NCBI GenBank assembly: GCA_015520605.1
Contig: WAPT01000024.1
Coordinates: forward strand, 25,732-89,731
Source: Nanobdellati archaeon
GTDB lineage: Archaea > EX4484-52 > WAPT01
DNA length: 64,000 nt
Reading direction: 5' to 3'
Positions 19,368-63,726 of the stretch are shown piece after piece. Both the position numbers and the translations under genes were made by a program. Position 1 is the stretch's first letter. Each line of letters opens with the position of its first letter. The notes below the pieces were generated by a model, which did no database searches, was not told where the DNA came from, and was given only the letters and a program-made list of their open reading frames with translations.

Positions 19368-19444
19368 TGGTGGACCGGCCGGGATTTGAACCCGGGGTCT
19401 CCGCCTTGCGAAGGCGGCGTCCTTCCAGGCTAGACTACCGGCCC
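19368..19444 (-). tRNA. tRNA-Ala(CGC)
   Basis: Anticodon arm CCGCC-TT-CGC-AA-GGCGG; G3.U70 pair; CCA encoded. Confidence 0.96.
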
Positions 19445-19571
19445 ATTGCGACAGGATTATGTGGTAGACTTTATTTAAATTTTTATTTTTAGAAAATAAT
19501 CAGGAGAAATTTCCCATAAACAAAAAGAAAAATAAAAATGGAAAAATCATAGAAATTATTTTTATACTAGA

Positions 19572-19877
19572 TCAATCTTCGATGTAGTATGCGTAATAAA
19601 GAGTCTCCGCTTCATCTGGCCTTAGTGGTGCGTTCCAGTCTTTGCTATCTATGATGTGCTTAAGAACAGCCCCTATAATTTCTTCAAGGTCGATAATATC
19701 CATACACGCTTTCCCTGAGTTTATCACTCCTGCTCTTTTCCCGTACTCCAACAGTTCTTGTATTTGTTCCCTAGACAATTCTACTAGAATCCCTATCCAG
19801 TCGAACCCCGGAATTTTCTTTCTCCTACTTATCTCACCTTTTTCCATTTCCAGATCTCTTCCGCTCCCGACCATCAC
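19572..19877 (-). CDS. Hypothetical protein
   Basis: 101-aa ORF with GGAGGTGA Shine-Dalgarno; no family recognised. Confidence 0.6.
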   Translation of the reverse strand: MMVGSGRDLEMEKGEISRRKKIPGFDWIGILVELSREQIQELLEYGKRAGVINSGKACMDIIDLEEIIGAVLKHIIDSKDWNAPLRPDEAETLYYAYYIED

Positions 19878-19878
19878 C

Positions 19879-20001
19879 TCACCTCCCCAAACTCAACAAT
19901 GACTTCTCCTTCGGGTTATGGTATATTCTACACACCACATATTCGTCTGTCTCACACAACTTCATTCCGGCTTTCGGACAACAACATCTAAACGGACACA
20001 T
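19879..20001 (-). CDS. Small Cys-rich peptide (40 aa, MCPFRCCCPKAGMKLC...C)
   Basis: Strong GGAGGTGA Shine-Dalgarno just before the ATG at 20001; abuts the next ORF. Confidence 0.55.
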   Translation of the reverse strand: MCPFRCCCPKAGMKLCETDEYVVCRIYHNPKEKSLLSLGR

Positions 20002-20025
20002 TTCTTCACCTCCTTTCACAAAACC

Positions 20026-20068
20026 CGCGGCCGCCCGGACTCGAACCGGGAAAACACCTTTCGGCCGC
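20026..20068 (-). ncRNA. tRNA-like mini-element (acceptor stem plus T-arm, no D or anticodon arm)
   Basis: GCGGCCG-AAAGGTGTTTT-CCCGG-TTCGAGT-CCGGG-CGGCCGC-G on the minus strand. Confidence 0.6.
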
Positions 20069-20175
20069 ATTTGGGACAAGCAGAAAGAGAAATACCGCTA
20101 CCGATTTATCCCATAAAATCCCCACAGACATTCGCATTATCTATCCTTATTCATTCTCATATCTGTTTTACAACA

Positions 20176-20211
20176 GAGAAGTAGGTAACTATGGAGAAGT
20201 AGGTAACTATG
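20176..20211. repeat. Exact 18-bp tandem duplication GAGAAGTAGGTAACTATG x2
   Basis: Read directly from the sequence. Confidence 0.9.
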
Positions 20212-20218
20212 AAAAACT

Positions 20219-20686
20219 TTAAAGCTTTTTGATCCGCCTGGCTTTCGGTATGAGGTTTTTGATAAACCTTCCCTGCTTGAGCCCTATACCGAGAATGTGT
20301 TCCTTGTATTTTAAAATCACGTAACCATCTTCAGCATCGCACTCAATATCGTAGAGATTGAGGCCACAGAGAACATCGTGCACTTTACCCTCACTTACTT
20401 CTACAACATTTTTTGTTGCATGCATGCCGAACATCTGTGCACCGTTCGTTGTTAGCTTTATTCGTTCCTTCTTCTTCTCCCATCTTAGGAACAACATTCC
20501 CACAGCTTCTACATTCAGACCGGAGAAGTTCTTATCCACAACATCCCTGTTTGTTATCCAGATTTTCCTTCCACTCTTGACAAAAACGTAGTCCTCGAAG
20601 AGTTCTTTCTTCAAACCAAATCTCTCCTCCAGATACTTCAACATTTCTCCCTTTTCCTCCTCACTCATTATTTTAAGCTTGCTCAT
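20219..20686 (-). CDS. RsmF/Nip7-like PUA-type accessory protein of the m5C methyltransferase
   Basis: Co-transcribed with the Nop2 methyltransferase; GYVILKY...LGIG...IKNLIPK. Confidence 0.7.
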   Translation of the reverse strand: MSKLKIMSEEEKGEMLKYLEERFGLKKELFEDYVFVKSGRKIWITNRDVVDKNFSGLNVEAVGMLFLRWEKKKERIKLTTNGAQMFGMHATKNVVEVSEGKVHDVLCGLNLYDIECDAEDGYVILKYKEHILGIGLKQGRFIKNLIPKARRIKKL

Positions 20687-20692
20687 CTCCCA

Positions 20693-21628
20693 TCACTCTT
20701 TTCTCAGCCTCGCAACAAAAAACCCCTCACTGTTATTGTCCTGAGGCCAAATACGCAAGCAGTTCTTCACACTCTTATCGAATTCCTGCCCCTCCCATTC
20801 CAGTATTCCGTGCCGTGCTTTAAGACCCCTGACCTTAACTTTTTCAACCACCAGTCCATGCTTCCTTACAGCATAATCCACTACAGCTTCATTTTCCTCT
20901 GGCGCCATCGTACAGGTTGAGTATACAAGCACATCTCCTCTCTTTAAAGTTACGGCAGCAGCATCTATCAACCTCTTTTGAAGTCGTGCCATCTCCTTTA
21001 TAAAACGAATGTTCCACCTCGAAAATGCCTTCCAATCTTTCCTCATTATGCCCTCTGATGAGCACGGAGCATCAAGCAATACCTTATCAAAACGCTCCCT
21101 GAACTTTATGAACCTCCTGCCATCCATTCTCGTCACAACCGCGTTTATTACGCCAAGCTTCTCGAGGTTGAAGCGCAGAATCTTAATTCTCTGAATCTGA
21201 ATGTCGTTGGCAACTATGCACCCTTTGTTCCTCATCATCTCTGCCATCTGTGTTGTTTTTGAGCCCGGTGCAGCCGCTAAATCAAGCACGAAGTCCCCTT
21301 CCTCTGGTTGTAGTACAACAGGTGGAATCATCGATGAGGCTTCCTGAACGTAAAAGTATCCCATGAAATGCTCGAGTGTGTTGCCGAGCTGCTCCTCGTT
21401 TCTGTTCTCCACCCAGAAACCATTCTCATACCAAGGCACGGGTTTGAGCTCCCAGCCTTTTGCCTCTAACATCCTGAGACACTTCTCCCTCTCGATCTTC
21501 AGAGTGTTTATCCTGATACTTTTCCTCAGTGGCTTTAAACAATACTCTACCAGGGTTTTTACCTCATCCCCTAAAATTCGTCTGTACCTTTCCCTGAAAA
21601 GCCGCGGGACATTTATTTTGTGGGTCAT
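20693..21628 (-). CDS. RsmB/Nop2 family RNA cytosine-C5 methyltransferase
   Basis: QEASSM, LDLAAAPGSKT, LLDAPCS, YSTCT, EENE. Confidence 0.95.
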   Translation of the reverse strand: MTHKINVPRLFRERYRRILGDEVKTLVEYCLKPLRKSIRINTLKIEREKCLRMLEAKGWELKPVPWYENGFWVENRNEEQLGNTLEHFMGYFYVQEASSMIPPVVLQPEEGDFVLDLAAAPGSKTTQMAEMMRNKGCIVANDIQIQRIKILRFNLEKLGVINAVVTRMDGRRFIKFRERFDKVLLDAPCSSEGIMRKDWKAFSRWNIRFIKEMARLQKRLIDAAAVTLKRGDVLVYSTCTMAPEENEAVVDYAVRKHGLVVEKVKVRGLKARHGILEWEGQEFDKSVKNCLRIWPQDNNSEGFFVARLRKE

Positions 21629-63607: not shown

Positions 63608-63726
63608 TGGTCCCGCCGCCCGGATTCGAACCGGGGACCGCTCGGTTTCTGAGCACATGGCTACGCGACTGTGCGCACAGGCACAGACCTACAGCCGAGC
63701 GCTCTACCAGACTGAGCTACGGCGGG
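63608..63726 (-). tRNA. tRNA-Tyr(GTA) with a 42-nt intron at 37/38 (about 63647-63688)
   Basis: C1-G72 acceptor pair; CTCGG-CT-GTA-G[intron]A-CCGAG; CCA encoded. Confidence 0.93.

Follow-up and report, generated by a model that had tools for sequence, protein, structure and literature searches.

We found that the minus strand of the window (the whole stretch of DNA analysed, 64,000 nucleotides long) carries a 43-nt tRNA-like minihelix at 20068..20026, here termed G000_A, which is one of nine such elements (eight distinct sequences) in three genomes of the genus (G000, G001 and G002). We consider the chances about even that this family is a genus-specific, t-element-like signal by which RNase P and tRNase Z would trim mRNA leaders. 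On inspection, G000_A reads GCGGCCG/11-nt linker/CCCGG-TTCGAGT-CCGGG/CGGCCGC/G, and the features first described from the letters, a 7-bp acceptor stem and a 5-bp T arm with a TTCGA loop and no D or anticodon arm, are indeed there, with only 11 unpaired nucleotides between the stems; the Shine-Dalgarno site placed about 12 nt after the minihelix was likewise found (Table 1). The fold mimics the acceptor stem and T arm of a tRNA, as that of a t-element does, and the host carries the enzymes of t-element processing, namely tRNase Z, the CCA-adding enzyme, Rpp29 and Rpp21.

Table 1. Features at and around minihelix G000_A (positions are those of the window)
Feature	Position	Strand	Basis or remark
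tRNA-like minihelix G000_A	20026..20068	-	sequence, MFE fold, orthologues in G002 and G001
Acceptor-like stem, 5' strand GCGGCCG	20068-20062	-	G1 at 20068
Linker, 11 nt, AAAGGTGTTTT	20061-20051	-	sequence
T-arm-like hairpin	CCCGG 20050-20046, loop TTCGAGT 20045-20039, CCGGG 20038-20034	-	sequence
Acceptor-like stem, 3' strand CGGCCGC	20033-20027	-	sequence
Discriminator G	20026	-	sequence
Shine-Dalgarno site GGAGGTGA	20013-20006	-	12 nt past the discriminator, 4 nt before ATG 20001
Pyrimidine-rich 5' leader with TTCTCTTTCTG	20069..20099	-	31 nt identical in G002 (alignment)
40-aa Cys-rich ORF	20001..19879	-	ATG at 20001; no Pfam family
Orphan gene (ORF101)	19572..19877	-	101 aa from GTG 19877 or 100 aa from ATG 19874
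tRNA-Ala(CGC), downstream neighbour	19368..19444	-	64.4 bits
155-aa protein with PUA-like domain of RsmF, upstream neighbour	20219..20686	-	Pfam scan
311-aa RsmB/F-type RNA methyltransferase	20693-21628		precedes the 155-aa protein

When the isolated 43-mer was folded, the minihelix was the MFE structure (-22.8 kcal/mol, 88% of the ensemble, z -1.98), and the element scored 51.3 bits with model R1 and 49.7 bits with model R2. Folded with its flanks, it had an unremarkable energy (z -0.96; 29 of 200 shuffles fold as well). ARAGORN, which called six tRNAs in the window and 29 in the genome, did not call G000_A, and the Rfam tRNA model RF00005, with 34 matches genome-wide, did not match it at E<=10. 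With no cloverleaf and no model match, G000_A is therefore not identified as a tRNA gene.

The geometry was also scanned for across both strands of the 863-kb genome, using a descriptor of 7 bp plus 5 bp (at most one G:U in each), a 7-nt loop with T1 and A5, and a linker of 3-18 nt. With a filter of at least nine G:C pairs, the descriptor found two places in the real genome, none in the reversed genome and none in 100 dinucleotide shuffles; without that filter the result was not significant (four in the real genome, where 20 shuffles averaged 2.3). The octamer GGAGGTGA occurs only 70 times on both genome strands and is followed by a start codon in 28 cases. Among these 28 sites in G000, the most stable upstream 80 nt are those of the two minihelix sites (-29.2 and -26.9 kcal/mol; next best -22.7), and a minihelix is visible by eye at only two of the 28.

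The genome search for further stem-plus-T-arm elements that the sequence-only reading had suggested yielded the nine members across the three congeneric genomes. The model search covered 42 genomes, the order, class and phylum sets being identical, and it found no element in any of the phylum's remaining 39 genomes; no Rfam family matches the elements, and a degenerate A-type DNA pattern had no match in metagenome contigs and none in viral contigs. In all nine elements the pairing is exactly 7 + 5 bp, with the 3' strands of T stem and acceptor stem directly adjoining, and the linker on the 5' side is between 3 and 18 nt long. For several members the folding advantage over shuffles is modest (z -0.29 to -2.0 for five of the eight sequences), and G001_A has a C.A mismatch and an MFE structure other than the minihelix. 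A Shine-Dalgarno GGAGG lies on the same strand, 5-19 nt past the discriminator, in seven of the nine, the chance of GGAGG being 0.039 per 25-nt window; in G002_A the Shine-Dalgarno site is about 100 nt distant, and G001_D has no convincing downstream ORF. G001_E begins (at G1) only 26 nt after the stop codon of the preceding ORF and is therefore intercistronic. CCA is encoded in none of the nine elements, compared with 22 of 28 tRNA genes, and the elements therefore resemble the class dependent on tRNase Z and the CCA-adding enzyme.

Pairing across the family was counted in a model-guided alignment (A3), which was used instead of the MAFFT alignment (A2) because the latter split the 5' strand of G001_E. 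It can be seen that 97.9% of the 96 stem cells are paired and that eight of the 12 pairs change on both sides, counts that are inflated since G000_B, G001_C, G001_D and G001_E were found by structure-aware searches, and that come from an alignment favouring structure and from a small sample of three genomes and about five independent lineages. The covariation score was 0.717 against 0.168 when shuffled, none of 500 shuffles reaching 0.717, and with slid partners it was at most 0.176. The element before the G001 homologue of ORF101 has T-stem pair 3 flipped from C-G to G-C, its G002 counterpart has G:U at acceptor pair 4, and the element before the orthologous membrane-protein gene in G001 has acceptor pair 2 changed from G-C to A-U. 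Conservation in relatives, on which the first interpretation had been made to depend, is thus borne out by orthologues in both congeners that carry compensatory changes. At the second locus, about 100 nt of leader together with the minihelix differ by one substitution between G000 and G002, the flanking coding sequence being about 90% identical (a rough reading of the alignment, not a computed value); leader and minihelix appear to be under purifying selection and at least as conserved as the coding sequence. The palindrome GCGGCCGC of G000_A was considered as a DNA operator and rejected, because the stems of other members differ, are not palindromic and still pair.

The T loop is conserved in a particular pattern. 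All eight distinct sequences keep T1 (U54), a purine at loop position 4 (R57), A5 (A58), T7 and the G53:C61 pair; loop positions 2 and 3 (55 and 56) vary, and conservation within the elements is lowest in the linkers and loops. In tRNA, positions 55 and 56 contact the D loop, which the minihelices lack. A point against cutting by an archaeal RNase P or tRNase Z is that, with no D loop, the tRNA elbow is missing, and three loop types have G at position 55. The tRNA-like features could also be an ancestral inheritance rather than the product of selection for enzyme recognition. The G001 counterpart of the first locus comprises three tRNA genes and extra cassettes, and includes a full tRNA (55.5 bits) with an identical acceptor stem, after which come a Shine-Dalgarno site and a small ORF; one family member retains an extra 8-bp arm within its linker. 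The full tRNA and the retained arm point to tRNA ancestry, and the elements probably arose from tRNA genes through loss of the D and anticodon arms.

The element had been placed in the leader of a small operon comprising the 40-aa Cys-rich ORF and the 101-aa orphan gene, and this setting did not hold up. The region of the 40-aa ORF is missing from G001 and is replaced in G002 by an unrelated 104-nt GC-rich stretch. Because it is not conserved in the congeners, we regard the 40-aa ORF as doubtful or as a lineage-specific micro-ORF, and the conserved unit is therefore the minihelix plus the 100/101-aa orphan gene. The stop codon of the 40-aa ORF falls within a second GGAGGTGA (19886-19879) that belongs to the next ORF, and the ATG at 19874, 4 nt past this site, is more likely to be the start of ORF101 than the GTG at 19877. 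Thus, of the original proposal of a tRNA mimic acting on an mRNA, the tRNA geometry, the conservation and the recurrence before Shine-Dalgarno sites stand, and the two-gene operon falls away. A conserved, covarying structure that recurs before Shine-Dalgarno sites fits a cis-acting tRNA mimic and not a plain att remnant.

Homologues of ORF101 are confined to the three genomes of the genus, with two representatives among 1.84 billion proteins. ORF101 has no Pfam family, every match in the atlas comparison was below 0.9, and a profile search of metagenome and viral contigs gave pattern matches and no confirmed relative. The AlphaFold model is helical (pLDDT 70.1) and had no match in the PDB with Foldseek at E<=0.001. 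The acceptor stem and T arm of the neighbouring tRNA-Ala(CGC) are unlike those of G000_A. The 11-mer TTCTCTTTCTG has five exact copies in the genome, two of them upstream of the two minihelices (51 nt upstream in the case of the second G000 element), a link that is suggestive and involves too short a motif to weigh. The 3' motif TTTATGGGAAATTT, found after both G000 cassettes, was rejected as a part of the element: variants follow many genes (27 matches with at most two mismatches) and it is therefore a general intergenic motif.

The enzymes in G000 were identified with scores of 352 bits for tRNase Z, 431 bits for the CCA-adding enzyme and, in agreement with the earlier statement that this genome encodes them, 95.9 bits for Rpp29 and 79.3 bits for Rpp21. 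The tRNase Z gene lies at G000:C26:16861-17769 and that of the CCA-adding enzyme at G000:C26:8318-9520. The RNase P RNA was not found in the G000 assembly, which is 90.7% complete, and is present in both congeners (133.6 bits in G001, 124.5 bits in G002), the G002 copy lying at G002:C29:9226-9543. Acceptor/T-arm minihelices serve as substrates of all three of RNase P, tRNase Z and the CCA-adding enzyme (PMC3714273; PMC4033280).

For the t-element reading we propose the following series of events. The elements would be transcribed within the 5' leader or the intercistronic spacer of small genes, and the precursor RNA would fold into a 12-bp coaxial stack of acceptor stem and T arm. RNase P would cut 5' of G1 (20068), removing the pyrimidine-rich leader, and tRNase Z would cut directly past the discriminator (20026). 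The predicted new 5' ends would thus be at 20068 and 20025, with the corresponding positions of the second G000 element at G000:C14:19588 and 19548. This would free a 43-nt minihelix able to receive CCA, and would leave an mRNA with an unstructured leader of 12-20 nt and a strong Shine-Dalgarno site. Processing of this kind would set the 5' end of the mRNA and make the gene independent of transcription from upstream.

The nearest parallels are t-elements. In plant mitochondria these direct cleavage by RNase P and RNase Z at mRNA ends and, like the minihelices, are tRNA-like and have a conserved T arm; they lie within mRNA precursors, just before or after the mature ends, a setting that the genomic position of the minihelices would fit. 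The cleavage is proposed and partly shown, and released elements bear non-templated C/A (Forner et al. 2007, PMC1920247). The plant elements are organellar, non-canonical cloverleaves of about 70 nt, described as processed by a protein-only RNase P (PMC4919922), whereas those described here are armless minihelices of 35-50 nt on an archaeal chromosome. Unlike the plant elements, they lie 5-19 nt before Shine-Dalgarno sites. The t-element upstream of 5S rRNA in Haloferax volcanii, described alongside other tRNA-like elements (Hoelzle 2008, 2012), is a tRNA-like processing signal of an archaeon. As described in papers that cite this work, it is cut by both RNase P and tRNase Z (PMC4326828, PMC4946936, PMC3296008), the RNA that follows it owes its 5' end to tRNase Z, and the in vivo cuts are those of engineered constructs. 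It differs from the minihelices in preceding an rRNA rather than an mRNA with a Shine-Dalgarno site and in its lineage, and the two showed no relation in sequence or in Rfam.

In the mascRNA/menRNA family (RF01684), RNase P and RNase Z cut a tRNA-like module out of a longer transcript, and a small tRNA-like RNA results (PMC4919922). These RNAs differ in being eukaryotic, in their location, which is 3'-terminal in a long non-coding RNA, and in being cloverleaf-like with extra arms. Membership of this family fails, as RF01684 matched neither G000_A (E<=10) nor any other member (E<=1); its sole match was the neighbouring tRNA-Ala, at 23.7 bits. Synthetic acceptor/T-arm minihelices form the same 12-bp coaxial stack and are also accepted by several aminoacyl-tRNA synthetases (PMC3714273; PMC4033280). 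They are linker-free laboratory constructs, whereas the natural family has a single-stranded bulge of 3-18 nt that replaces nucleotides 8-48. A full-text literature search, thin on subscription journals, returned no title or abstract on armless minihelices in archaeal mRNA leaders.

A potential explanation that would not need to invoke 3' processing is that the minihelix is a cis-acting structure of the mRNA leader which the tRNA enzymes leave uncut on its 3' side or altogether. The position just before the Shine-Dalgarno site and the covarying conservation suit any cis-acting RNA, and the fully conserved 31-nt leader is not obviously needed if it is simply discarded. Such a structure could stabilise the 5' terminus against 5'-to-3' decay, perhaps once RNase P has trimmed it, and the stable GC-rich stack (-19 to -23 kcal/mol in six of the eight sequences) would stop an exonuclease; or it could be bound by a protein, regulatory or recognising the T loop, that governs translation of the adjacent gene with its strong Shine-Dalgarno site, and the invariant U54, A58 and G53:C61 could suit a T-loop-binding protein rather than a nuclease. 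However, a generic stabiliser needs no exact 7 + 5 bp geometry with a one-sided linker, as kept by all nine elements, and with CCA encoded in none of them nothing known keeps tRNase Z off. In addition, the duplex energy between leader and Shine-Dalgarno site was no better than that of 300 shuffled leaders for any of the nine members (z -1.04 to +0.99), a result that also leaves unsupported the idea that the pyrimidine-rich leader masks the Shine-Dalgarno site (as an anti-SD) until RNase P cuts. We consider a leader structure left uncut at least on its 3' side unlikely.

We think it quite improbable that the element is an mRNA 5' module in which RNase P trims the leader, the 5'-terminal minihelix acts like a cap and tRNase Z serves as an off-switch. 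The minihelix would then guard against 5'-to-3' decay, draw a tRNA-binding translation factor to the Shine-Dalgarno site, or both, and a regulated tRNase Z cut would silence the message and free a CCA-tagged minihelix.

Equally improbable, in our view, is that the elements are neutral relics, either decayed tRNA genes or att copies from mobile elements that brought in the small orphan genes. The first locus adjoins tRNA-Ala, and its G001 version has the three tRNA genes, the extra cassettes and the full tRNA with the same acceptor stem; the second locus, however, is not adjacent to any tRNA gene. All ORFs downstream of the elements are orphans without Pfam families and the distribution is limited to one genus, but searches of the viral and metagenome collections brought up no relative, and the six neighbouring ORFs scanned belong to housekeeping Pfam families with no integrase among them. 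The same 18-nt T-arm core stands in both G001_A and G001_B, the two copies being separated by about 590 bp in the manner of direct repeats. Against this, the stems show compensatory changes instead of decay, and leader and minihelix are conserved at least as well as coding sequence. An att copy of the 3' part of a tRNA would lack the 5' acceptor strand, which is kept in all nine elements. The proposed look for a full tRNA sharing the 3' end found none in the assembly with the 3' 24 nt of G000_A, the best three resident tRNAs having three mismatches each. We conclude that an att site or duplicated tRNA fragment fails as an explanation of G000_A (5' strand present, three mismatches, no integrase in six neighbours), and the earlier argument that this is not a simple att remnant is upheld by the retained 5' acceptor strand, the compensatory changes and the lack of a tRNA with the same 3' 24 nt.

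It is very unlikely that the elements are independent small-RNA genes, each giving a CCA-tagged top-half tRNA of about 43 nt that acts in trans, with promoters or spacers shared with the ORFs. A TAAAT-like motif is seen by eye 30-40 nt upstream of three members, G001_D lacks a clear downstream ORF, and mascRNA offers an earlier example of a tRNA-like by-product that is stable (PMC4919922). However, with linkers and loops the least conserved parts there is no common sequence to act in trans, and the discriminator is G, C or T among orthologues, which argues against a conserved aminoacylation identity. The tight, repeated association with Shine-Dalgarno sites (seven of nine) would be left unexplained, and in G001_E just 26 nt separate the upstream stop from G1.

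The 11-nt linker equals tRNA positions 38-48 in length, from which came the idea of a split tRNA 3' half of the Nanoarchaeum type. This was rejected, the 5' acceptor strand being present in cis; the heptamer GCGGCCG occurs 11 times on both strands of the 90.7% complete assembly, in no case followed by a D arm.

To our knowledge, the formation of archaeal mRNA 5' ends and the separation of polycistronic transcripts are poorly understood. Known t-elements are those of organelle mRNAs and of one archaeal rRNA. Even as inert relics, the elements would still document a stepwise reduction of tRNA genes. If the cap-like module is real, it would amount to a prokaryotic system of mRNA ends that relies on mimicry of tRNA, and the acceptor/T-arm minihelix would be a living, autonomous functional unit. 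If the t-element reading is correct, mRNAs too would be shaped by tRNA-processing enzymes in an archaeon with a small genome, giving a chromosomal counterpart to the tRNA punctuation of mitochondria. The family would then be a natural set of minimal substrates for archaeal RNase P, tRNase Z and the CCA-adding enzyme, and its loops suggest that, without a D loop, U54, R57, A58 and G53:C61 persist while positions 55 and 56 are free.

The minihelix in the window (G000_A, G000 being the genome containing the window) consists of the acceptor stem and T arm of a tRNA without the D and anticodon arms. It was found on the minus strand exactly as the sequence-only reading had described it, with a perfect 7-bp stem directly stacked on a 5-bp stem that carries a canonical TTCGAGT loop, and the Shine-Dalgarno (SD) site expected some 12 nt further on, the 40-aa Cys-rich ORF and the orphan gene ORF101 are likewise present in the sequence. 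The proposed two-ORF cassette holds only in part: ORF101 recurs together with a minihelix in the congeners G001 and G002, but the Cys-rich ORF is not conserved when the locus is compared in these genomes. G000_A was not called as a tRNA by ARAGORN or by the Rfam tRNA model, an Rfam search gave no family at E<=10, and the mascRNA model matched only the adjoining tRNA-Ala.

Features at the G000_A locus and example sites of a recurrent intergenic motif (window coordinates unless a contig is named)
Feature	Position	Strand	Basis
5' acceptor-like strand GCGGCCG	20068-20062	minus	sequence reading
11-nt linker AAAGGTGTTTT	between 5' acceptor strand and T-arm hairpin	minus	sequence reading
T-arm-like hairpin CCCGG-TTCGAGT-CCGGG	20050-20034	minus	sequence reading
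3' acceptor-like strand CGGCCGC	20033-20027	minus	sequence reading
Unpaired G (discriminator)	20026	minus	sequence reading
SD site GGAGGTGA, 12 nt past G000_A	20013-20006	minus	sequence reading
40-aa Cys-rich ORF, TGA inside second GGAGGTGA	ATG 20001	minus	
Second GGAGGTGA, SD site for ORF101	19886-19879	minus	
ORF101	ATG 19874 (100 aa); GTG 19877 (101 aa as listed)	minus	
tRNA-Ala(CGC), next downstream	19444-19368	minus	
TTTNNGGGAAATTTNTCC motif, example sites	19506-19519; G000:C14:19127-19140; G000:C24:54080-54093		

Counting both strands, the 863-kb assembly contains the GCGGCCG heptamer 11 times, and three of these copies lie within G000_A. A scan of G000 for tRNA-type T arms returned 34 places, comprising 28 in tRNA genes, five weak AT- or GU-rich ones and G000_A. 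A full descriptor (two perfect stems, a 7-nt loop with T1 and A5, a linker of 3-18 nt and at least nine G:C pairs) matched two places in the G000 genome, whereas neither the reversed sequence nor any of 100 dinucleotide shuffles gave a match; without the G:C filter the result was not significant (four real matches against a shuffle mean of 2.3). Folding energy taken alone is weak evidence for G000_A, with z-scores of -1.98 for the 43-mer and -0.96 with flanks.

The second descriptor match, G000_B, is a further stem-plus-T-arm element of the kind that the sequence-only reading had proposed looking for. It reads GGGCCGG / AGAATAAC / GAGGG-TGAAAAT-CCCTC / CCGGCCC / C (G000:C14:19588-19549), with GGAGGTGA 5 nt downstream and then the ATG of a 123-aa membrane-protein ORF. 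Across the G000_A locus the genomes G000 and G002 are 87% identical, and G002 keeps the minihelix (G002_A) with the same 5' strand, an identical T arm, a linker longer by 2 nt and a C as discriminator. Its acceptor pair 4 has become G:U through a C-to-T change, and its 31 nt of upstream sequence match those of G000_A without a difference. The G001 homologue of ORF101 shows 40% identity over the alignment, and 17 nt before its SD site lies GCGGCCG / 14 nt / CCGGG-TGCAATT-CCCGG / CGGCCGC / T, in which the acceptor is that of G000_A but loop and linker are different and T-stem pair 3 has flipped from C-G to G-C.

Run against all of the order's 42 genomes, a covariance model made from five elements reached at least 42 bits at six places, every one in this genus. 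We inspected 21 weaker matches; the 15 outside the genus (26.9-35 bits) were all 3' parts of ordinary tRNA genes, and those within it added three G001 elements (33.8, 33 and 25.8 bits) and the G002 copy of G000_B. With a second model, built from all nine elements and run on the same 42 genomes, which are also those of the class and of the phylum, the nine members scored 43-53 bits and all further matches, which are tRNA-Arg, no more than 36.8 bits. The family is sampled from three genomes of one genus; the models gave no minihelix in the remaining 39 genomes, many of them incomplete, and no Rfam family matches any of the nine members.

When the nine members (eight distinct rows) were aligned, 97.9% of the 96 cells paired, two-sided changes were seen in 8 of the 12 pairs, and the covariation score was 0.717, compared with 0.168 with shuffled partners (reached by 0 of 500) and at most 0.176 with partners slid by 1-3 columns. 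This alignment was fitted to the model, and four members came from structure-aware searches, so that members identified by the gene they precede are the less circular evidence. Among the three elements preceding ORF101 homologues there is one compensatory flip, and one pair is G:U. At the second locus, where the downstream membrane-protein orthologues of G000/G002 and G001 both end ...LRSS, acceptor pair 2 shows a double change from G-C to A-U, the loop has two changes and the linker measures 8 versus 3 nt. Between G000 and G002 the leader and minihelix of this locus (~100 nt) differ by one substitution, and the flanking coding sequence is about 90% identical on a rough, uncomputed reading of the alignment. 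The minimum-energy fold is the minihelix in six of the eight distinct sequences; G001_A has a C.A mismatch and another minimum-energy fold, and G001_D folds with an additional 8-bp arm inside the linker. From the comparative sequence evidence we conclude that the minihelix structure is under selection. Such conservation also agrees with an element that stays on the mRNA and acts in cis as a stabiliser or as a binding site for a protein, a reading that we consider unlikely and that leaves the exact tRNA geometry unexplained.

This geometry is strict. All nine elements have exactly 7 + 5 bp with 0 nt between the two 3' strands, as at the tRNA 65/66 junction, and 5' linkers of between 3 and 18 nt. 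In all eight sequences the T loop has T at positions 1 and 7, a purine at position 4 and A at position 5, and the last two G:C pairs of the T stem are kept; position 2 varies between T and G, and seven of the eight have C at position 3. In tRNA numbering U54, R57, A58 and G53:C61 are kept and 55 and 56 vary, a pattern suggesting that the T-loop fold itself is selected and contacts to the absent D loop are not. CCA follows the discriminator in none of the nine minihelices, versus 22 of 28 tRNA genes of G000, and the variation of the discriminator between orthologues (G, C, T) speaks against a conserved identity for aminoacylation.

An origin of the minihelices from tRNA is plausible judging by their sequences. 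The same intergenic region of G001 (G001:C3:58039-58305, including the downstream ORF) holds a complete tRNA (55.5 bits; 1040-1112 of the G001 locus extract L016) whose acceptor stem is identical to that of the minihelix; its anticodon loop (TATCCAG, with A at position 33) is odd and CCA is not encoded, with an SD site 14 nt further on and then a 59-aa zinc-ribbon ORF (L016 1127-1306). This tRNA is absent from G000 and G002, and may be a full-size t-element, that is, a tRNA-like processing signal within a longer transcript, or the parent of the minihelices. That the elements are inert relics of tRNA genes or att sites we regard as distinctly improbable: orphan genes lie downstream, the first locus is rich in tRNA genes and two G001 copies have an identical 18-nt T-arm core, but the compensatory changes, the conserved leader and the lack of any resident G000 tRNA matching the 3' part of the minihelix speak against it, as does the retained 5' acceptor strand, which an att remnant had been argued to be unlikely to keep.

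Only 29 tRNA genes were detected in G000; none of them is for His or Asp, and several isoacceptors are lacking. The tRNA-Tyr(GTA) gene (window 63608-63726, minus strand) has a 42-nt intron and was missed by default ARAGORN and found by an intron-aware run, and several G000 tRNA genes carry long introns with GATGA...CTGA, resembling C/D boxes by eye; further disrupted genes are probably still undetected or missing from the assembly. The G001 tRNA-Ala(CGC) (L016 2595-2720) contains a ~50-nt insertion inside the T loop, absent from its G000 and G002 orthologues, that is probably a non-canonical intron.

GGAGG lies 5-19 nt past the discriminator on the same strand in seven of the nine elements (chance per random 25-nt window 0.039), and the G000 genome contains only 70 copies of the full octamer GGAGGTGA. 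The exceptions are G002_A, in which an unrelated 104-nt GC-rich insert with two 7-8-bp hairpins (2238-2341 of the G002 locus extract L006) separates minihelix and SD site and takes the place of the 40-aa ORF region, and G001_D, which has no convincing ORF. G001_E starts 26 nt past the stop codon of the preceding ORF and so occupies an intercistronic spacer; G000_B lies ~100 nt downstream of a TTTTTAAATA box, read by eye as a promoter. The downstream genes comprise the ORF101 family, two membrane proteins and a 245-aa ORF; each is small or hypothetical, and no Pfam family matches any of them. ORF101 homologues are confined to the genus, with just two representatives among 1.84 billion proteins, and its predicted structure, a small helical protein (pLDDT 70), has no match in the PDB. 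A test of the pyrimidine-rich leader for an anti-SD role gave no support for it.

Housekeeping genes flank the G000_A locus in the window, and no integrase was seen among those scanned. Upstream (20219-21628, minus strand) lie an RsmB/F-type RNA m5C methyltransferase (311 aa) and its PUA-like-domain protein (155 aa), encoded side by side as separate ORFs in each of the genus's three genomes; downstream are an 8-oxoguanine glycosylase, an Lrp regulator and rubrerythrin. Right after the stop of the 155-aa ORF is a perfect 18-bp tandem duplication (catagttacctacttctc twice; 20176-20211, minus strand), present as a single copy in G002. A T-rich run followed by TTTNNGGGAAATTTNTCC recurs downstream of G000 genes (27 matches at no more than two mismatches) and may be a terminator- or promoter-associated signal. 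Five G000 contig ends carry near-identical sequence with ...agagggcatcacctcc... (C3:~106, C22:~106, C7:~22916, C21:~14705 and C27:~10150), a repeat that seems to break the assembly and is possibly rRNA-related.

Action in trans as a small RNA is very improbable, as the elements have no conserved single-stranded sequence for it. G000 encodes tRNase Z (352 bits), an archaeal CCA-adding enzyme (431 bits) and, in keeping with the sequence-only reading, both Rpp29 and Rpp21; RNase P RNA was not found in its 90.7%-complete assembly and is present in both congeners. Passages in the literature describe acceptor/T-arm minihelices as accepted by RNase P, tRNase Z and the CCA-adding enzyme (PMC3714273; PMC4033280), and plant mitochondrial t-elements as signals that guide RNase Z and RNase P to cut at mRNA ends and that bear non-templated C/A once released (PMC1920247). 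In passages on Haloferax volcanii, tRNase Z cuts a t-element upstream of 5S rRNA, and both RNase P and tRNase Z process t-elements in vivo (PMC4326828, PMC4946936, PMC3296008, citing Hoelzle 2008, 2012). Given the encoded enzymes and this literature on tRNA-like signals, we favour the reading of the minihelices as t-elements, and put its chances at about even.

The principle of tRNA mimicry as a processing signal is already known, and a full-text literature search found no title or abstract describing such minihelices in archaeal mRNA leaders. The novelty lies in the armless architecture, in the placement directly ahead of SD sites and in the existence of a small covarying family on an archaeal chromosome. 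As t-elements, the minihelices would allow RNase P to remove the leader at G1 and tRNase Z to cleave after the discriminator, and the resulting mRNA would begin 12-20 nt before the start codon with its strong SD site free.
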